This document shows, piece by piece, positions 1,018 through 50,880 of a stretch of DNA of 64,000 nt. The DNA is from Ferruginibacter sp. (lineage in GTDB: Bacteria > Bacteroidota > Bacteroidia > Chitinophagales > Chitinophagaceae). Below the pieces are notes generated by a model. That model was given only the letters and a program-made list of their open reading frames with translations. It had not been told where the DNA came from and made no database searches. The DNA is taken from assembly GCA_043757165.1 (NCBI GenBank), contig JAYVPT010000040.1:60786-124785 (forward strand). The letters are read 5' to 3'. Within the stretch, counting starts at the first letter, position 1. The number at the start of each line of letters is the position of its first letter. Made by a program: the position numbers and the translations under genes.

Positions 1018-4000
1018 ATGAGAAACTTTATTTCAAAAAAACTAATTAAACAGAAATGGCTTTGCCTGTTTCTGCTAACAAATCTGTTTGTCTTTGCAAT
1101 AAAGGCACAGGTAAAAATATCCGGTAAGGTTACCGATAGCAAAGGGGAAGCTGTAGCCGGAGTTTCTGTTTCTGTAAAAAATGATAATGCAGGTACCTCT
1201 ACGAATGCAGATGGATCATATCAGTTTATGGCCAATCTTAAAAAAGGAAAACACATATTGCTATTTTCAGGAGTGGGATTTAAAAGCATGGAGCAAACTA
1301 TTACTGTAAATGATAATGCAGAAATAACTGCCATTGCAACTTTACAAAACGATGCGATGGGAATGGATGAAGTTATTGTAACTGGTACTTCAACAGGTAC
1401 CACCCGCAGGCAATTAGGCAGCTATATCAGTACGGTAAAAGCAGATCAGCTTACCAAAGGTGCTACAGCAAATGTTCTGGCTGCATTACAAGGCAAAACT
1501 GCGGGAGCACAGATAACACAGAATAGTGGAGATCCTTCTGGTGGTATTTCTGTACGGTTACGAGGTATCAGCTCTATTTCCAGTAGCAGCGAACCTTTGT
1601 ATATCGTAGATGGTGTAATTGTAAATAATGCAACTACAAGAGTTACTAATACAAGCGGCAATTATGATGGTCAAAATTTTGTTGGTGCCATCGGGCAAAA
1701 CAGGCTGGCAGATATTAACCCTGCTGATATAGAAAGAATAGAAGTGTTGAACGGTGCTGCGGCAGCGGCAATTTATGGTTCAAGAGCAAATGCAGGCGTT
1801 GTACAAATTTTTACAAAACGTGGTAGCTCAGGAGCACCAGTTGTTAGTTTCTCATCCAGCCTTATGTTTAGTAAACTTAGAAAAAGCGTAGAAGTAAATC
1901 AATCTCCTGTAAAATTTGGTGGCCCTACCGATGGTGTAGGTGCACAAACTCAGGATATATTAACTCCGGCTTTAACTACTACTACAGGCGTAAGACGTTA
2001 TAATTATAATGACTATATTTTTCAAACTGGTGTTGGAACAGATAATAATGTTTCTATTTCCGGCGGAACTGATAAAACAAAATATTATGCTTCAGGTTCT
2101 TATTTTAAAAATGAGGGGATCATAAAAAATACGGATTACAGACGATATAGTTTCAGGGTAAATTTAGATCAGGCTATAGGTAATAAAGTAAATTTTAATA
2201 TTGGATTAAATTACGTAAATAGTTTCAGTAATGAAAAGCCTGACGGTAACTCATTTTTCTCTCCTTTAAATTCAATAAACATTATTGGTAATTTTCACGA
2301 CCTGTTTACAAGAGATGCTTTGGGTAATATTAAAGCCATTGGCGAAAGGGGGCGGGTAAACCCGGTTTCAGTTATTGAAGACATTAAACAAAAAGAGGAA
2401 ACAAACAGGGTAATTGCGGGTATGGGCTTAAAAGTAAGGCCATTTAAAGGGCTAACTTTAGACTATAAATTGGGAATAGATCAATATTCACAAAGAGGAC
2501 AAACTTATATTCCTCCCTTTGCATATAATGTGAGTGATGGATTTTTTGGTGGAGGAGCTGCTCTTGATGCTACACGTAATGGTTATGCAGGAACGGCTTC
2601 TGATAATTTTTTTCAAATAAATAATGAGATAAACGGAACTTACCAGTTTAATATAAACAATGATATAACCTCAACTACACAGGTTGGTTATTCTGTACAA
2701 TATGAAAAAAACAGTTATTCATTATTGCAGGGCCGTGGACTGGCTCCTTTTATTTCAACAGTAAGTGCAGCTAGTACATTGTTACAAGGGGCAGATGAAA
2801 GAAGTGAATTATCGGTATCCGGTTATTATGCACAGCAAAATTTTAAATATAAAAACATTTTATTTTTAACCGGAGCTATAAGAGTGGATGGTTCTTCGGT
2901 TTTTGGTAAAGATCAACGTAACCAAAAATATGCAAAAGCAAGTGCAGGGTATGTAATAAGTGAGCATGGCTTTTGGCAAAATATGGCAATAAGTAAATAC
3001 TGGAATTTTGCAAAGCTAAGAATAGCTTATGGTGAAAGTGGAAATCTTACTGGTATTGGCGCTTATCAACGTTTTAATTCTTATAGCAGTAACTCCTTTA
3101 TTAGCCGTTCTGCTTTAAGTTCCGGCAGCACTTTATCAAATCCTGATGTTAAGCCAGAAAGACAGAAAGAATTGGAGTTTGGTATTGAGTTGGGATTTTT
3201 AGCCAACAGGATAAATTTTACTGCCAATGTTTATAATAAAAAAGTTGATGATTTATTAATCAATCGTTTTATAGCACCAACAAATGGCTTTAGCAGCTAT
3301 TTAAACAATTTTGGAAGTTTAGAAAATAAAGGGTTTGAATTGATGTTGTCAGGAACTCCCGTTCAAACAAAAGATATCAACTGGAGTATTACCGGTATTT
3401 ATAATCATAACAGGAATAAAGCTGTTAAAATCGGACAGGCATTAACTTTATTGAGTACTAACTCGGGAGCTCCGGTTTCAATTATTGAAGGACAACCTAT
3501 CGGCGTTTTCTATGGTGCTTATTTTGCCTTAGATGCCGGTGGTAATCTGGTAAAGAATGCTTTCGGTTTTCCTCAGGGTGAAAGAGGCATTCAGACCGGG
3601 GCATTAGCCTATACCGTAATAAGAGACCCTGCAACAGGATTACCCATAACCACTAATCCATTGGTAAGAACTATTATAGGAGATCCAAATCCTGATTATA
3701 CGGCAACATTAACCAACGAAGTATCTTATAAAAAATTTAGTTTTAGGATACAAATAGATGCTGTAAAAGGCAATGAAGTTTTTAATGCAGACTGGAGAAC
3801 AAGGCAAGGTGTTGGTAATGGTAAAGAAGCTGAAAAAGAACAAACCGGGGTTTATCCACGTGGATATATCAGTAGTTTTTATGGCACTGTTGAACAGTGG
3901 CGTATTGATGATGGTTCCTTTGTTAAACTGCGTGAAATTTCTTTGAGTTATTCTTTAGGTAAAATAAAATGGTTTAAAGATATCACGGCTTCTGTAACCG

Positions 4001-4146
4001 GAAGAAACCTAAAAAGCTGGGATCATTACAAAGGATATGATCCGGAAGTAAATGCAGGCGGCCAAAGTAATATTTTAAGAGGAATAGATTTTGGCGCTAT
4101 TCCTATTCCAAAAACTTTCAGTATTGGGGTTTCTGCTAAATTCTAA
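1018..4146 (+). CDS. SusC/RagA-family TonB-dependent outer-membrane transporter
   Basis: Signal peptide, carboxypeptidase-regulatory-like domain, plug motifs (PLYIVDG; INPADIERIEVLNGAAAAAIYGSRANAGVVQIFTKRG) and C-terminal Phe. Confidence 0.96.
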   Translation: MRNFISKKLIKQKWLCLFLLTNLFVFAIKAQVKISGKVTDSKGEAVAGVSVSVKNDNAGTSTNADGSYQFMANLKKGKHILLFSGVGFKSMEQTITVNDNAEITAIATLQNDAMGMDEVIVTGTSTGTTRRQLGSYISTVKADQLTKGATANVLAALQGKTAGAQITQNSGDPSGGISVRLRGISSISSSSEPLYIVDGVIVNNATTRVTNTSGNYDGQNFVGAIGQNRLADINPADIERIEVLNGAAAAAIYGSRANAGVVQIFTKRGSSGAPVVSFSSSLMFSKLRKSVEVNQSPVKFGGPTDGVGAQTQDILTPALTTTTGVRRYNYNDYIFQTGVGTDNNVSISGGTDKTKYYASGSYFKNEGIIKNTDYRRYSFRVNLDQAIGNKVNFNIGLNYVNSFSNEKPDGNSFFSPLNSINIIGNFHDLFTRDALGNIKAIGERGRVNPVSVIEDIKQKEETNRVIAGMGLKVRPFKGLTLDYKLGIDQYSQRGQTYIPPFAYNVSDGFFGGGAALDATRNGYAGTASDNFFQINNEINGTYQFNINNDITSTTQVGYSVQYEKNSYSLLQGRGLAPFISTVSAASTLLQGADERSELSVSGYYAQQNFKYKNILFLTGAIRVDGSSVFGKDQRNQKYAKASAGYVISEHGFWQNMAISKYWNFAKLRIAYGESGNLTGIGAYQRFNSYSSNSFISRSALSSGSTLSNPDVKPERQKELEFGIELGFLANRINFTANVYNKKVDDLLINRFIAPTNGFSSYLNNFGSLENKGFELMLSGTPVQTKDINWSITGIYNHNRNKAVKIGQALTLLSTNSGAPVSIIEGQPIGVFYGAYFALDAGGNLVKNAFGFPQGERGIQTGALAYTVIRDPATGLPITTNPLVRTIIGDPNPDYTATLTNEVSYKKFSFRIQIDAVKGNEVFNADWRTRQGVGNGKEAEKEQTGVYPRGYISSFYGTVEQWRIDDGSFVKLREISLSYSLGKIKWFKDITASVTGRNLKSWDHYKGYDPEVNAGGQSNILRGIDFGAIPIPKTFSIGVSAKF

Positions 4147-4165
4147 ACCTTTTAAAAAAATAATT

Positions 4166-5467
4166 ATGAAAAATAGAAATAGAAAAATTGTAACAATTGC
4201 AGCATTGCTAGGTGCTACATTTTTACAAATAAGCTGTAAAAAGGATTATACCGATCCGTCAAGAGCTAATGAAGAACAGGCCTTAACTACTCCAAGGGGT
4301 TTAACCGGAGTTGCAGTAGGTTTACAAAGAGTATATACTTTAGGAAGAGGAAGTACTTTGTATAATTTAATTACCATAAATGGATTAACCACCAATGAAC
4401 TTTTTGTAGTTAATGCAGGTAATACTGCTGAGTTACAAATAGGAACCGGAGGAACATCAGTAGATGGGAACAACTCTATGTTAACCACTTACTGGACCAC
4501 TTGTAATAAAGTAATTTATGATGCAGAACTGGTGATTAGTAACTCTAAAAATTTAAGCGATAAAAATTATGCAAGTGGTTTAATTGCGTACGCAAGTATT
4601 TTTAAAGCATTATCTATTGGAGATATGGCACAGTTTTGGGAAAAAGTGCCTGCAGGTATTGGAACTAATGTAACTTTTATTGACAGGGTTGATGGTTTTA
4701 AAAAAGCAATAACAGTTATTGACGATGCATTGGCAGCTGTTGCAGCTAATCCGGTTAGCAGTTCATTTACTACCAGCATACCAGCAGGTATTGATTTGAT
4801 AAATACATTAAATGCTTTAAAAGCAAGGTACTCCTTATATGCAGGGTTATATGCACAAGCTTTGTCTTCAGCTAATTTGGTTATCCTTACTATAAAATCA
4901 ACTTTTAATTTTGATGCACTTTCTTTAAATCCTGTTTTTGAAACAGCTACATCTACAAATAACGTAGTGCAGCCTAAAGATTCTACATTAGGTTTAGTGA
5001 CTGCATTGGCGCCTTCTTTAACGGATGGCAGAGTTCCGTTTTATACTGCTATCAATACCACAATTGCTCCAAGATTTAGAATAAATGGTTTTTGTAATGC
5101 AGCTGCTACAGCTTTCCCGGTGTATCTGCCCGGAGAAATTACTTTGATCAAAGCAGAGTGTTATGCACGTAGTAACGACAGTACTACAAGCAAAATATTT
5201 TTAAATACAGTGATAACTAAAACAGCAGGTGCAGATCCGTTTGGCGTAGGTGCTAATCAGCCAGCAATTGTTTCTGTAGGTTCTTATGCAGCATTGCTGG
5301 ATGAAATATACCGTCAACGTTGTATAGAATTATTTATGAGTGGCCAGAAATTAGAGGATATGAGAAGGTTTAACAGACCAGTTGCCGAACGCAAAAGAAA
5401 TTTAATGCCTTATCCATTGCGTGAAAGGGATAACAACCCTAATACACCGGCTGATCCTCCTTTTTAA
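4166..5467 (+). CDS. SusD/RagB-family lipoprotein
   Basis: Lipobox (QISC), LIKAECYAR and EIYRQRCIELFMSGQKLEDMRRF motifs; lies 19 nt after susC. Start moved to ATG 4166. Confidence 0.92.
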   Translation: MKNRNRKIVTIAALLGATFLQISCKKDYTDPSRANEEQALTTPRGLTGVAVGLQRVYTLGRGSTLYNLITINGLTTNELFVVNAGNTAELQIGTGGTSVDGNNSMLTTYWTTCNKVIYDAELVISNSKNLSDKNYASGLIAYASIFKALSIGDMAQFWEKVPAGIGTNVTFIDRVDGFKKAITVIDDALAAVAANPVSSSFTTSIPAGIDLINTLNALKARYSLYAGLYAQALSSANLVILTIKSTFNFDALSLNPVFETATSTNNVVQPKDSTLGLVTALAPSLTDGRVPFYTAINTTIAPRFRINGFCNAAATAFPVYLPGEITLIKAECYARSNDSTTSKIFLNTVITKTAGADPFGVGANQPAIVSVGSYAALLDEIYRQRCIELFMSGQKLEDMRRFNRPVAERKRNLMPYPLRERDNNPNTPADPPF

Positions 5468-6888: not shown

Positions 6889-7686
6889 TCAGAATCTTAT
6901 ATCATAGCCAATAGTACCAATCAATTCAAAATAACCAAAACTATGGTTCACTCTTCCACCACCAGCTGCTAAGGCATTGGTATAATTGGCAAAACCTGTT
7001 TTTGCAGCACCTTCTAAAAACCATTTTTTTGAAAAATAAAACCTGCCTCCACCTTCTGCACCTAAGCAATAACCGGCAATATGAAAACGGTTGTCAACCC
7101 GTTTGCCACTTAATGTTACATCTGTTTTCGGTATAAGAATACCGGCACCAGCCTTCCATATTGCTGTAAACATTGGCCTGGTACCATTTTTTTTCAGCAA
7201 ATATTGCCTTACATAATTGATATGATAAAAATTGGCTCCGTTGGTATGCTCGAAATGTAATTGCGATGAATTAAAAGCTGTGTCTTTATCAAAATACCCT
7301 GTTCCGATAGTGCCTTTGGCATGCAGTAACTGGTTATCGTAAACAATGTATTTAGTATGGTCGTAATTAATTTCGAGAGCTTGTGTATGGCTTTTGGTTA
7401 GATAAAAACCGATGCGGTAATTGTATTGTGGAACACTGATTTGTATTGGTTCTTTGTAAACGGCATCCAGGTCGTTTCTGTCATGCGCCACAGCTTTATA
7501 AATTGTAAAATCGTGCGGTACGCCATTAACCACATCTTTAAAATGAATATTACTTTTAGTATACCATTCCGTATTATATCCCCATTGCAGGTACATACCG
7601 CAAAATAATTTCTTTTTTTCCTTTTCCTGAGAGAAGCCGTGAAATGAAGATACAGATGCCAATAAAATCAATAGATACTTTTTCAT
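6889..7686 (-). CDS. Hypothetical outer-membrane beta-barrel protein
   Basis: Signal peptide MKKYLLILLASVSSFHGFSQ, amphipathic strands and C-terminal GYDIRF. Start moved to ATG 7686. Confidence 0.7.
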   Translation of the reverse strand: MKKYLLILLASVSSFHGFSQEKEKKKLFCGMYLQWGYNTEWYTKSNIHFKDVVNGVPHDFTIYKAVAHDRNDLDAVYKEPIQISVPQYNYRIGFYLTKSHTQALEINYDHTKYIVYDNQLLHAKGTIGTGYFDKDTAFNSSQLHFEHTNGANFYHINYVRQYLLKKNGTRPMFTAIWKAGAGILIPKTDVTLSGKRVDNRFHIAGYCLGAEGGGRFYFSKKWFLEGAAKTGFANYTNALAAGGGRVNHSFGYFELIGTIGYDIRF

Positions 7687-38257: not shown

Positions 38258-38310
38258 AACAAGCGTTTTTACGTTGCTTAAAGTTAAATAAAACTGTTAA
38301 CAATTCATTT

Positions 38311-38337
38311 GCAACTTTTTTATCCTTTTCGGCGTCT
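38311..38337 (+). promoter_or_regulatory. Putative ECF-sigma promoter
   Basis: GCAAC (38311-15), 17-nt spacer, CGTCT (38333-37). Confidence 0.65.
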
Positions 38338-38341
38338 TACA

Positions 38342-38402
38342 AACGGTTTTTCATAGGATATTGGATTTAAAAGGGGCTGGATTTTTATCCTGGCCCTTTT
38401 TT
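38342..38402 (+). ncRNA. Candidate ~60-nt small RNA, copy 1
   Basis: Own promoter, 5' seed GGTTTTTCATAGGATA (38345-60) and terminator hairpin 38369-38402; no co-oriented upstream gene within about 1 kb. Confidence 0.65.
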
Positions 38403-38571: not shown

Positions 38572-39003
38572 TTAGACCTTAATTAAAATTTGAATTTTAG
38601 GATGTAACCACCAAATTCCTAAAGGGAAGAAAATTAGAAGTACAATATTCCCCAAGTAATCCGGGAAATGGCATTTTTTTTTCAATTCTATTGTAACAAT
38701 AGTTTTAGCAACGAACCTGATTAAATAAATACAGTTCCAGGCTAGAAAGCATTGTCCAATAATTAGTAATGGTAACATCCATTTAGGGTCTTCAATATTT
38801 GGATAAGTCAAGGCGAAATAAATTGATAATGCAATTATATAAATATTGGTTAAGACAAGTTGTACTGTAAATCGCCTAAGCTTAATTACTGGGTCATATG
38901 TGTTTTTTTCGAGAAGTTTTTTTGTAATTGAGTATGTCCAAATAAAAAAAAATGTAAAAACTGCAATATTTATGAAACACCAAAGTTTTATATTACCATA
39001 CAT
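38572..39003 (-). CDS. AT-rich orphan membrane protein, possibly frameshifted (alternative ATG at 39071)
   Basis: Four TM segments. An upstream frame MTPYFSRIPLLTLFFVSI is 1 nt out of register. Confidence 0.6.
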   Translation of the reverse strand: MYGNIKLWCFINIAVFTFFFIWTYSITKKLLEKNTYDPVIKLRRFTVQLVLTNIYIIALSIYFALTYPNIEDPKWMLPLLIIGQCFLAWNCIYLIRFVAKTIVTIELKKKCHFPDYLGNIVLLIFFPLGIWWLHPKIQILIKV

Positions 39004-48777: not shown

Positions 48778-50175
48778 CTATTCTCCAATAGTTTCAACAG
48801 CCTGTTCCAGATCAACATCTTCATTTTTTTTGTATGGCCATTTGTGCAGCAGTTTTGCATAAATAAAATAGACGACCACACCGCTGCCAAATACAATTAA
48901 GAAGGAAGCAATAATAGTTAATCCTGTTGCATAAAAAATAAACAACCACATGGCAATGGCTAAAATAACCGGTAGGGGATACAGGGGCATTTTATAAGGT
49001 AAATGTTTAGTACCGTTTCTTTTTCTTAATAAAATTATACCAACAGCCTGCCCTATAAATTGTATCATAATCCGCATGGCCAGTATGCCATCTATTACAT
49101 GTTTCATCTTAAATAATAAACTAAACACAAATGCAAAGCCCGCCAGTACTAATAATGAAACATAGGGAAAGTTTTTAGTAGGATGCAGTTTACCAAAGAA
49201 TTTAAAAAATGCACCATCAACTGCAGCAGCATAAGGAACTCTTGAGTAACCAAGCATTACTGCAAATAAAGAAGCCAATGCCACCCACAAGATCATAACA
49301 GTGGCAATATTGGCGGCATTACCTCCATAAAGCCTTTCTATAAAAGTGCTCACTACAAAATTATTTTGACCCCTGTCCTGCCAGGCTTTTATTTCCTGCC
49401 AGGGAATTACACTACTTACACTTACATTCATTGCCAGGTACAATACTGCAATGCCAATTACAGAAATAAACATGCTTCGGGGAATATTTTTTCCAGGGTT
49501 TTTTATTTCTCCACCCAAATGGCAAACATTGTAATACCCTAAATAACTGTACATCGATTTTATGCAGGCCTGCCCAAATACAAATGATGCAAGCTGTCCC
49601 CAGCTAAAATCGGTATTGATATCTTTTAATGGTTGTAAAAAATTGCCATGAGCAATGCCGCCAATTATTATCCAGCCTAAAGTAAGCAGTACACCACTCC
49701 ATAAAAACACGCCTATTTTTCCAATGCTGTCAATTTTACGGTACAATAAAAAAGTAACGAATAAAATAACAATTCCCGAAACTGCTTTTTGCTGCCACAC
49801 ATCTAAATGCACTAAATAACCTAAGTATTGCGCAAACCCTATTGCTGCTGAGGCTGCTACCAGCGGCGCCTGAATTACCGTTTGCCATACGTATAAAAAA
49901 CTCATCATCCTGCCCAGGCCATTTTTTCCGTAGGCTTCTTTTAAAAAATTATAACTGCCGCCAGCTAGCGGGTACGCAGCGCCCAGTTCACTCCATATCA
50001 TGGCATCTATCAGCGATAAAATGGCTCCTGCAATCCAGGCGTATAAAAACATGCCGCCCATAAAACCAATAACAATGGGGAGTGTTACAAAGGGGCCAAT
50101 GCCCACCATATCAATCATGTTTAAAACGGTAGATTGAAAAAGTCCAAGGCGGCGTTCGAGTTTTGGTGCCTGCAT
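48778..50175 (-). CDS. APC-family amino acid permease
   Basis: MIDMVGIGPF, WSELGAAYPLAGGSY and GEIKNPGKNIPR motifs; 12 TM. Confidence 0.93.
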   Translation of the reverse strand: MQAPKLERRLGLFQSTVLNMIDMVGIGPFVTLPIVIGFMGGMFLYAWIAGAILSLIDAMIWSELGAAYPLAGGSYNFLKEAYGKNGLGRMMSFLYVWQTVIQAPLVAASAAIGFAQYLGYLVHLDVWQQKAVSGIVILFVTFLLYRKIDSIGKIGVFLWSGVLLTLGWIIIGGIAHGNFLQPLKDINTDFSWGQLASFVFGQACIKSMYSYLGYYNVCHLGGEIKNPGKNIPRSMFISVIGIAVLYLAMNVSVSSVIPWQEIKAWQDRGQNNFVVSTFIERLYGGNAANIATVMILWVALASLFAVMLGYSRVPYAAAVDGAFFKFFGKLHPTKNFPYVSLLVLAGFAFVFSLLFKMKHVIDGILAMRIMIQFIGQAVGIILLRKRNGTKHLPYKMPLYPLPVILAIAMWLFIFYATGLTIIASFLIVFGSGVVVYFIYAKLLHKWPYKKNEDVDLEQAVETIGE

Positions 50176-50228: not shown

Positions 50229-50308
50229 AAAAAACCGGGCCTCTTTGCAGAGTCCCGGCACTAATCAAAAACTATTAACTATTAAACCTTATCCTATGAA
50301 AAACCACT
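50229..50308 (-). ncRNA. Candidate ~80-nt small RNA, copy 2
   Basis: Seed GGTTTTTCATAGGATA (50305-50290) identical to copy 1; terminator GCCGGG...CCCGG plus U-run (50259-50229). Confidence 0.65.
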
Positions 50309-50311
50309 ATT

Positions 50312-50338
50312 AGTAGCTAATCAATAAAGACAGGTTGC
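50312..50338 (-). promoter_or_regulatory. Putative ECF-sigma promoter
   Basis: GCAAC (50338-34), 17-nt spacer, CTACT (50316-12). Confidence 0.55.
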
Positions 50339-50352
50339 ATGGTATAAATATT

Positions 50353-50880
50353 TTACCATTTCGATGTAAACTCTTTCATAAAATCAGGGAAGTTTTTATT
50401 TTTATAAATACCATCACCAAAAAACTTTAGTGGGGCTTCCAGTTCCGAAGGTTTTAAAAATCCTGCTAATGGTGCAGGCTGGGCATCTAAACTTGATAAT
50501 AAAACCGTGGTTGGATAACCCATACGGCCAAACAAAAGATAAACCGCCAGGTCATTGGCTTTATAAGCCGGGTTATAACCATATTTTTTGCCACCCAGCT
50601 CAGCATAATCTTTCGATTCGGCATTGAATTTTACAGCATAATAATTTTCGTTGATATAACTGGCTACGGCATCATTTCCATAGGTTTCTTTATCCATCAC
50701 TTTACACCAGCCACACCAGTTGGTATACACATCAATGATTATAGGCCTGGGCTGCTTATTGTAAGCCACACTTAACTCACTCAGGCTTAACCATTTTACC
50801 TTTTCTTTTTTTGGAGGAGTAAAGGAAAAAATAACTATTGAAAGGGTAAGGAGAACAAAAAAATATTTAACCTTCTGCAT
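50353..50880 (-). CDS. Periplasmic thioredoxin-family protein (DUF255-like)
   Basis: DVYTNWCGWCKVMD and GYPTTV motifs; signal peptide. Confidence 0.9.
   Translation of the reverse strand: MQKVKYFFVLLTLSIVIFSFTPPKKEKVKWLSLSELSVAYNKQPRPIIIDVYTNWCGWCKVMDKETYGNDAVASYINENYYAVKFNAESKDYAELGGKKYGYNPAYKANDLAVYLLFGRMGYPTTVLLSSLDAQPAPLAGFLKPSELEAPLKFFGDGIYKNKNFPDFMKEFTSKW

Follow-up and report, generated by a model that had tools for sequence, protein, structure and literature searches.

FopS, the 'family of paralogous sRNAs' of Bacteroides thetaiotaomicron, comprises 14 small RNAs (sRNAs) of ~70-80 nt, each with an unpaired 5′ seed (R1′) and a terminator, transcribed from sigma-A promoters. These RNAs repress susC-like mRNAs of polysaccharide utilization loci by pairing at the start codon, and the RNA recognition motif (RRM) protein RbpB binds and antagonises FopS (PMC11697453). 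Its conservation has been reported within Bacteroidaceae, with one copy in a phage (PMC11697453). GibS, whose conservation is within Bacteroides, uses the same R1 sequence for pairing with translation initiation regions (PMC7366714). No paper linking FopS- or GibS-like RNAs to Chitinophagaceae was found in the literature. Here, a 64,000-nt stretch of DNA of Ferruginibacter sp. (contig JAYVPT010000040.1), originating from a sediment metagenome and referred to as the window, was analysed. It carries an sRNA gene of ~77 nt on the minus strand (50229..50305), which had been flagged in an original prediction made from the sequence and is called copy 2. A second sRNA gene, copy 1 (~58 nt), lies at 38345..38402 on the plus strand. 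Both genes were compared with FopS and GibS and with their own relatives in other genomes and metagenomes.

The sigma-E-dependent sRNAs of enterobacteria (MicA, RybB, MicL) are likewise short, carry a 5′ seed, are transcribed from an extracytoplasmic function (ECF)-type promoter and repress the synthesis of outer-membrane proteins by pairing near start codons. Their likeness to the window copies is a functional analogy with no sequence relationship, and ECF dependence in the window is a reading of the promoter motif. The sigma-E sRNAs depend on Hfq, which is not known from Bacteroidota.

Organization of the two sRNA genes

Copy 2 extends from a GG at 50305 to the end of a U-run at 50229. On the minus strand the gene consists of the 16-mer GGTTTTTCATAGGATA (50305-50290), the linker AGGTTTAATAGTTAATAGTTTTTGATTAGT (50289-50260), the hairpin GCCGGGACTCTGCAAAGAGGCCCGG (50259-50235), which is apparent from the sequence and the fold, and a T6 run (50234-50229). 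The hairpin and the U-run make up an intrinsic terminator (50229..50259, minus strand) with a GCCGGG/CCCGG stem, an inner CUCU/AGAG stem, a GCAA loop and U6. The region preceding it, GGUUUUUCAUAGGAUAAGGUUUAAUAGUUAAUAGUUUUUGAUUAGU (50260..50305, minus strand), is the conserved single-stranded 5′ region, near-invariant in more than 100 loci of the type-B subfamily described below. Copy 2 shows two substitutions in this region with respect to the type-B consensus, UAAUGG being replaced by UAAUAG twice. A CAU at 50298-50296 (minus strand) is the complement of AUG. Folding of the whole RNA (50305-50229) gave -19.4 kcal/mol, with the 3′ hairpin followed by U6 and the first 24 nt unpaired. Upstream of the gene, a putative promoter (50306..50339, minus strand) is composed of TGCAAC (50339-50334), a 17-nt spacer, CTACT (50316-50312) and 6 nt to +1. 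All the elements which the original prediction had described for this gene are thus present on the minus strand at the positions given there.

The 16-mer of copy 1 (38345-38360, plus strand) is the second and last exact occurrence of GGTTTTTCATAGGATA in the window. It is followed by GGGGCTGGAT-TTTT-ATCCTGGCCC and T6, and the 3′ hairpin folds as predicted. The putative promoter of copy 1 (38310..38337, plus strand) has the form TGCAAC-N17-CGTCT and ends 7 nt before +1. The two copies had been described as parallel in layout. This description stands for GCAAC, the 17-nt spacer, the 16-mer and the hairpin; the gap between the -10-like box and the 16-mer is one nucleotide longer in copy 1 (7 nt) than in copy 2 (6 nt), and the boxes themselves differ (CTACT in copy 2, CGTCT in copy 1). 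About 40 16-mers are repeated in the window, many of them palindromic. Identity of a 16-mer by itself is therefore not significant, as had been cautioned, and the case rests on context, that is, on the copies found in relatives, the covarying terminators and the profile scores.

A large sRNA family in Chitinophagaceae

Genomes were scanned for the exact 16-mer, with one genome per species. It was found in at least 119 genome loci, nearly all of them from Chitinophagaceae/Chitinophagales, and the isolates among the matches include Chitinophaga filiformis, C. oryziterrae, Foetidibacter luteolus, Longitalea arenae and Paraflavitalea speifideaquila. The 20-mer TTTCATAGGATAAGGTTTAA, taken from the type-B region of copy 2, was found in at least 120 metagenome loci and also on 18 viral contigs. 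The scan of relatives for further copies of seed plus terminator, proposed along with the original prediction, was thus positive in genomes and metagenomes alike.

Among the matches listed, 127 sites with the 16-mer, the two of the window included, were sorted by type. Type A accounts for 107 of the 127 sites, copy 1 among them; here the 16-mer is followed by TTGGATTTTAAAAC and a terminator, and the median length is 63 nt. Type B, to which copy 2 belongs, has AGGTTTAATGGTTAATGG...TTGATTAG and a terminator after the 16-mer (4 sites). Type C is found in Chitinophaga species and has TGGTTAAAA... and a terminator at this position (8 sites). The remaining 8 sites are mostly unrelated chance matches, with one type-A variant (L061) and two odd arrays.

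Type-A genes are ~58-63 nt long. Positions 1-20 do not vary among the 54 distinct type-A genes that were aligned, and this stretch includes four positions outside the search word. The type-A terminator shows covariation, with GC changed to AU in 14 sequences at one pair and double changes in 8 of the 12 pairs. When the window was searched with the type-A covariance model, two copies only were found, copy 1 with 82 bits (E 4.7e-20) and copy 2 with 22 bits. In type B the conserved 5′ region has the form UUUCAUAGGAUAAGGUUUAAUGGUUAAUGG...UUGAUUAG and is present in copy 2. Type-B loci also show little or no variation in TGGTTAA and TTTGATTAG, which lie outside the search word. The first four bases are variable, GAAU being the commonest, followed by GGUU, GACU and GUCU. 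Type-B terminators differ freely in sequence, with the layout of hairpin and U-run kept directly after the conserved region; the terminator hairpin of copy 2 is nearly matched in its closest relative (L206). A type-B profile (profile R2) based on 40 loci other than the window gave 57.5 bits for copy 2 (E 5.6e-17) and 9.6 bits for copy 1. These scores indicate two subfamilies with the first 16 nt in common, and not two copies of one gene.

Copy 2 is thus a real sRNA gene, and the large family to which it belongs, in Chitinophagaceae of soil and sediment, has not been described before. The family is multi-copy, with 1-3 tandem genes per locus in hundreds of loci and two copies in the 64-kb window, as expected from the original prediction of a minus-strand sRNA gene belonging to a multi-copy family. 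Selection rather than recent duplication, which had also been proposed, is indicated by the conservation of the 5′ single-stranded part and the drift of promoter spacers and terminators. The description of the two copies as paralogs with a 16-nt seed needs to be modified. They do belong to the same family, but to separate subfamilies with conserved 5′ regions of ~23 nt (type A) and ~46 nt (type B).

Relation to FopS and GibS

At the Rfam gathering thresholds, no family match was obtained anywhere in the window. Under permissive settings the best match of copy 2 was FopS (RF04319; 32.1 bits, E 0.0015), aligned end to end (positions 1-71 of the 71-position model). All of the six further genes of types B and C that were tested, from five loci, likewise matched FopS, with 26-31 bits. 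The viral variants gave no FopS match in Rfam at E values up to 10. When the first 33 nt of copy 2 were compared with the FopS consensus, 26 of the 32 aligned positions were identical (GUUUUUCAU.G.AU.AG.UUUAA.GUUAAUA), a score reached by none of 5000 shuffles. The part 3′ of the CAU is similar on its own (p ~0.01). Six positions of copy 2 differ from the FopS consensus, within the R1′ range. With the GibS model (RF04182), copy 2 scored 21.1 bits (threshold 115); the alignment is confined to the 5′ end and the terminator and leaves out 47 model positions.

The family resembles FopS in further respects. Several paralogs occur per genome (two in this window, up to three in tandem per slot in relatives), copies are present on phage contigs in both cases, and a gene for an Rbp-type RRM protein is found on a related contig. 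This gene (L173:5816-6262, plus strand) encodes an RRM protein with a Gly-rich tail which matches NCBIfam NF058537 (Rbp_regulator) with 122.8 bits against a cutoff of 100, and it lies ~1.2 kb upstream of a type-B sRNA gene at ~7463. The differences from FopS concern the host, which is Chitinophagia in soil and sediment and not gut Bacteroidaceae, the type-B conserved region, which is longer, and the promoters, which are not uniformly sigma-A: both window copies have TGCAAC-N17-CNWCT, and a few members have a sigma-54-like element. With GibS the family has in common an R1-like 5′ end, GUGUUUUUCAUAGUAUUAGAU, and a non-canonical promoter, whereas GibS, which is ~145 nt long, differs in its second seed (R2) and its structured middle part. 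Judged by sequence, the family of copy 2 is a sub-threshold relative of FopS/GibS, the nearest described family; the original prediction had not noted this likeness.

A dCas12f guide RNA was considered as a different identity for the element and rejected. Such guides adjoin dCas12f-sigma-E loci and are built differently (PMC13472631), and nothing of the kind is found near either copy.

Relatives of both types are discrete RNAs

The commonest type-A sequence is present in ~20 RNA-type public runs. In a small-RNA library from RNA immunoprecipitation sequencing (run X11), a 107-nt contig carries the sRNA between a 3′ and a 5′ adaptor. The junction with the 5′ adaptor falls exactly at the initial G of GGUUUUUCAU, and the RNA, ~59 nt long, ends after UUUU. 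This G is also the first base of type-A contigs in two other runs (X7 and X9). The commonest type-B variant is present in 23 runs, including metatranscriptomes of soil, peat, sludge, compost and estuary. In one run (X45), the first G of GAAUUUUCAU, a type-B relative of the GAAU type, directly follows a template-switch oligo (...GTATCAACGCAGAGTACGGG). Poly(A) is found within the terminator or at the end of the U-run, corresponding to an RNA of ~76 nt. Type-B contigs from three metatranscriptomes have ends within 1-2 nt of this 5′ end. The adaptors and the template-switch oligo are presumed to be those of library kits. When four metatranscriptomes were aligned to copy 2, the only matches came from other variants and covered the conserved 46 nt.

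Close relatives of both types are thus discrete RNAs with the 5′ end, triphosphate or processed, at the first conserved base and the 3′ end in the U-run. A discrete RNA, on which the original prediction had been made to depend, is therefore found for relatives of type A and of type B.

Three kinds of putative promoter

In ~120 family sites a Bacteroidota -7 box of the sigma-A type (TAnnTTTG) ends at -5, which places +1 at the first conserved base. A sigma-54-like element, TGGCAY-N5-TTGM at 12-13 nt from +1, is present at four type-A sites, compared with ~0.005 expected. These strict sites lie at L087:7410-7440, L104:1380-1410, L088:4787-4817 and in L039 (minus strand, upstream of 796), and looser matches were seen in L100, L027, L056, L061 and L020. 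At 21-22 of the 267 non-redundant family sites (~8%) TGCAAC starts at -36/-35, against 0.08 expected per position. In this class, which includes both window copies, a CGTCT/CGACT/CATCT/CTACT-like box follows 17 nt on, at 6-8 nt from +1. The copy 1 promoter is the sole match to TGCAAC-N16-18-CGWCT in the window, where 0.07 would be expected, and its boxes are also present in L024 and L070. In the orthologs of copy 2 (L145, which has two copies, L164, L206, L230 and L015), TGCAAC(C) and C(G/A)ACT are kept with the same spacing, and the spacer has diverged.

We take TGCAAC-N17-CNWCT to resemble promoters of the ECF type, such as TGCAAC/TGTAAC-N17-CGTC/CGAC of Bacillus sigma-M and sigma-X; this resemblance is a lead and not a test. 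From the motif, we infer that both window copies are driven by a common, putative ECF-like promoter. No strict promoter motif was found upstream of a sigma gene in the loci. The original prediction had placed the whole family under ECF control. What stands of this is the position-specific TGCAAC box in a subset that includes both copies. Most members have an ordinary sigma-A -7 box and a few a sigma-54-like element, so that ECF-type control is at most a property of a subset, one that includes this genome.

Proposed mode of action and alternative explanations

The region 50305-50229 (minus strand) is probably the gene of a trans-acting sRNA of ~77 nt, of type B of the Chitinophagaceae family, which acts by pairing at start sites. 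Copy 2 would be transcribed from the GG at 50305 via the TGCAAC-N17-CNWCT promoter. Its unpaired 5′ region, in which CAU and the U-run are complementary to AUG-AAA-AA, would pair with start-codon regions, and the predicted targets are mRNAs of exported or outer-membrane proteins, typically starting MK(K/N). In Bacteroidota, where a Shine-Dalgarno sequence is mostly lacking, the start region would be the landing site of the ribosome, and pairing there would block initiation, as has been experimentally shown for FopS on susC-like mRNAs. The longer conserved stretch of type B is probably the binding site of an RRM-type Rbp protein. Since the architecture matches that of FopS/GibS (fixed start, unpaired conserved 5′ end, terminator, multiple copies), translational repression by anti-start-codon pairing appears to be the most likely mode for copy 2.

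Several results weigh against this reading. Copy 2 itself was contained in none of the public RNA runs searched, its expression being taken from that of its relatives. Its FopS score is below the gathering score of 56 bits, and that of type A is 15.3 bits. The -10-like box of copy 2, CTACT, lacks the CG of its orthologs and of typical ECF promoters, and no ECF sigma gene is present among the 29 open reading frames (ORFs) of the window that were checked. Scans for duplexes and for in-register pairing at ~4000 ORF starts, from the window and the genome loci, performed no better with the sRNA than with shuffled sRNAs. A scan for 12-mer complements in ~1.8 Mb of loci returned mostly chance matches or diverged sRNA copies, with no enrichment at start codons. 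SusC-like ORFs were complete in only two cases in the DNA examined. The conserved stretch of type B is far beyond the usual seed length and may point to protein binding, and some viral and other variants retain AGGAUAAGGUUUAAUGG but are devoid of UUUUCAU.

The last two of these results would be accommodated if the RNA were real and served mainly as a protein-binding or decoy RNA, for example by titrating an RRM-type Rbp regulator, with the invariant AGGAUAAGGUUUAAUGGUUAAUGG as the binding platform. The Rbp_regulator gene near the type-B gene in L173 points in the same direction, as does the binding of RbpB to the 5′ part of FopS in B. thetaiotaomicron (PMC11697453). However, what types A, B and C have in common with one another and with FopS/GibS is UUUUCAUAG, the extreme 5′ end, which is anti-AUG, and base pairing by FopS and GibS has been experimentally shown with compensatory mutations (PMC11697453, PMC7366714). 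Pairing and protein binding are also mutually compatible, and a role mainly in protein binding is considered unlikely. It is less probable still that copy 2 is a cis element, either a processed 3′ untranslated region (UTR) of the thioredoxin-like gene (DUF255/DsbH-type by Pfam; 50353..50880, minus strand) or a terminator-containing leader (attenuator) of the amino-acid permease gene (Pfam; 48778..50175, minus strand). Copy 2 does start 47 nt after the stop codon of the former, and the latter begins on the same strand 54 nt downstream of the terminator. This order of thioredoxin-like gene, sRNA and permease gene recurs in L164, L206, L110, L015 and L108, a separate hairpin lies between the thioredoxin-like gene and the sRNA in L076, L108 and L110, and one FopS member of B. 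thetaiotaomicron is derived from a 3′ UTR (PMC11697453). Against a cis role, the family is found in many unrelated contexts: after gldN, an ATPase gene or the gene for pyruvate dehydrogenase E1-beta, convergent with uvrC or a recQ-like gene, and divergent from ubiX. The promoter boxes are conserved at a fixed distance from +1, and copy 1 points away from the gene upstream of it and converges on the ORF that lies downstream. Many loci of the slot next to ubiX are without the thioredoxin-like gene, the sRNA being divergent from ubiX (L139, L151, L135, L183). With no co-oriented gene upstream, such an sRNA needs a promoter of its own, which argues against an origin from the thioredoxin 3′ UTR.

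On the opposite strand, the original prediction had allowed for expression of the mini-ORF MKNHY (50296-50313, plus strand). An ORF of 5 codons is indeed found opposite both window copies (MKNHY, MKNRL), and exactly 5 opposite-strand codons are present in 66 of ~270 family sites. This peak arises because the -7 box, TTATATTTG, creates a TAA. Across the family the opposite-strand ORF has anything between 4 and more than 40 codons and, beyond MK, encodes different peptides, so that the mini-ORF is not conserved. It is the sRNA strand that carries the promoter boxes, the U-run of the terminator and the RNA ends that were mapped. The mini-ORF was rejected as the product on these grounds, the excess of 5-codon ORFs being a by-product of the -7 box; that it or another plus-strand leader peptide is what functions here is hardly credible.

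A possible superfamily of start-codon-pairing sRNAs

Beyond the trans-acting, start-site-pairing sRNA proposed for copy 2, a wider and more tentative reading can be considered, which we hold to be somewhat doubtful. The R1 seed of FopS/GibS may be no speciality of Bacteroidaceae but the tip of an ancient sRNA superfamily. Its members would occur in two or more classes of Bacteroidota and have in common an invariant 5′ end, UUUUCAUAG, adapted to the AUG-AAA-AA starts of mRNAs for exported proteins. Such a superfamily would take in the three promoter kinds at a fixed start, the phage tRNA arrays and the complementary arrays of the L008 kind described below. The same Chitinophagaceae RNA body would then be under at least three kinds of promoter (sigma-A, sigma-54-like and ECF-like) with the start site fixed, phages would carry the RNA within tRNA arrays, and the L008 arrays could be sponges or multi-site targets.

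The sRNA biology of Bacteroidota is known almost wholly from a few gut Bacteroides species, and FopS and GibS have been reported as conserved only within Bacteroidaceae or the genus Bacteroides. Here, hundreds of related members are found in environmental Chitinophagaceae. The anti-start-codon design would accordingly be older and more general in a phylum that is without Shine-Dalgarno-led initiation and without Hfq. The natural variation of the family, in the first four bases and in the replacement of CAUAGG by CAAAGG in some paralogs, could be used to read the rules of target choice. The link to alternative sigma factors would amount to a testable envelope-stress circuit, analogous to that of the sigma-E sRNAs. 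For annotators a family model is of help, as the gene is missed by the current Rfam thresholds.

Genomic context of the family

A UbiX-family flavin prenyltransferase gene (NCBIfam TIGR00421; 50905..51492, plus strand) lies beyond the thioredoxin-like gene of the window and is the anchor of the conserved slot in which copy 2 is located. When the window proteins were used in tblastn searches, UbiX (66-87% identity) adjoined a family sRNA in more than 60 loci and the thioredoxin-like gene did so in ~30. The lolA/ubiX/(thioredoxin-like) slot holds 1-3 tandem sRNA genes; both types occur in it, and A and B are found together in L155. The mpo1/queA context of copy 1 is also seen in L024 and L070.

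The separate hairpin of L076, L108 and L110, located after the stop codon of the thioredoxin-like gene and before the sRNA, is short and GC-rich (e.g. GCUGCAUACGUGCAGUUUC). It lies ~10-35 nt upstream of the sRNA start, where other loci have promoter boxes, and could be a terminator of the upstream gene or a processing signal.

Type-A genes have recurrent positions, each directly 3′ of a co-oriented gene: gldN (18 sites), a HerA-like ATPase gene (14 sites), the pyruvate dehydrogenase E1-beta gene (10 sites) and the thioredoxin-like gene by ubiX/lolA (7 sites). gldN is part of the gldLMN genes for type IX secretion and gliding, and the type-A gene lies ~120-260 nt downstream of it (L005, L007, L009, L010, L013, L030, L042, L047, L048, L058, L064, L073, L075, L081, L089, L098, L101). 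In several gldN loci a candidate gldK, a lipoprotein ORF of ~430 amino acids ~5 kb upstream and likely the first gene of the operon, begins with AUGAAAAACC. This start is complementary to sRNA positions 1-10, and the complementarity may be a coincidence arising from MKN signal peptides.

Complementary sites near other genes

The window contains a SusC-like and SusD-like gene pair (1018-5467, plus strand), the SusC-like protein of 1042 amino acids having CarboxypepD_reg and Plug domains. The starts of SusC (1018) and SusD (4166) pair in register with sRNA positions 1-10 and 2-12, a length of 10-11 nt with G-U pairs counted; this is no better than what ~4% of all ORF starts achieve.

At L008:2051-2125 the 16-mer occurs three times in tandem without mismatch, the period being 27 nt, and on the minus strand the copies form three UAUCCUAUGAAAAACC sites, each with an AUG. 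The sites lie in a 272-nt spacer between the gene of a protein sorted by the type IX secretion system (2269-2784, minus strand) and that of a secreted protein of 276 amino acids (1167-1997, minus strand). If read on the minus strand, they are in the leader of the secreted-protein gene. The array could be a multi-site target or a sponge for the sRNA.

At L023:1432-2030, ~10 degenerate copies of a seed-like motif (GGUYUUUCAAAGGAUYUGGAU, minus strand) are found within ~600 nt upstream of a gene for 152 amino acids at 2009 (plus strand). The start region of this gene (CCUAUGAAAAG, with AUCCAA before it) is complementary to the sRNA. In a Bacteroidia metagenome-assembled genome (L066:1702-1717), the complement of the 16-mer falls on the start of a 2OG-Fe(II) oxygenase gene (271 amino acids), UAUCCU-AUG-AAAAACC; the match is perfect over 16 nt and could be due to chance.

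Variant seeds and viral copies

A possible third copy in the window (38946-38981, minus strand), GGUGUUUCAUAAAUAUUGCAGUUUUUACA followed by U9, was rejected. It scored 12 bits (E 0.15) with the type-A model and has no terminator hairpin, and it was treated as a chance match. It sits within the start of an ORF of 143 amino acids without a Pfam match.

A seed variant was seen in L032, where a type-A tandem paralog (~7240-7303, minus strand) with the seed GGUUUUUCAAAGGAUAUUGGAUUU lies beside a canonical copy (7428-7443, minus strand). In this paralog CAAAGG replaces CAUAGG and would complement UUG rather than AUG; CAAAGG is also the unit of the L023 array.

Viral copies comprise the 18 contigs with the type-B core and three contigs with the type-A core, all from IMG/VR. 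In L248:464-671 and L253:5129-5290 (both IMG/VR) and in L142:145-486 (metagenome), a type-B element begins 3-7 nt 3′ of a tRNA gene within a tRNA array, and in L248 another tRNA follows the element. In L244 (minus strand, near 3129) the element begins at AGGAUAAGG right after a tRNA-like 3′ end, with T-arm and acceptor sequence read by eye, and has no UUUUCAU. This arrangement points to tRNA arrays as the place in which phages carry the RNA, and to tRNA processing as the step that releases it.

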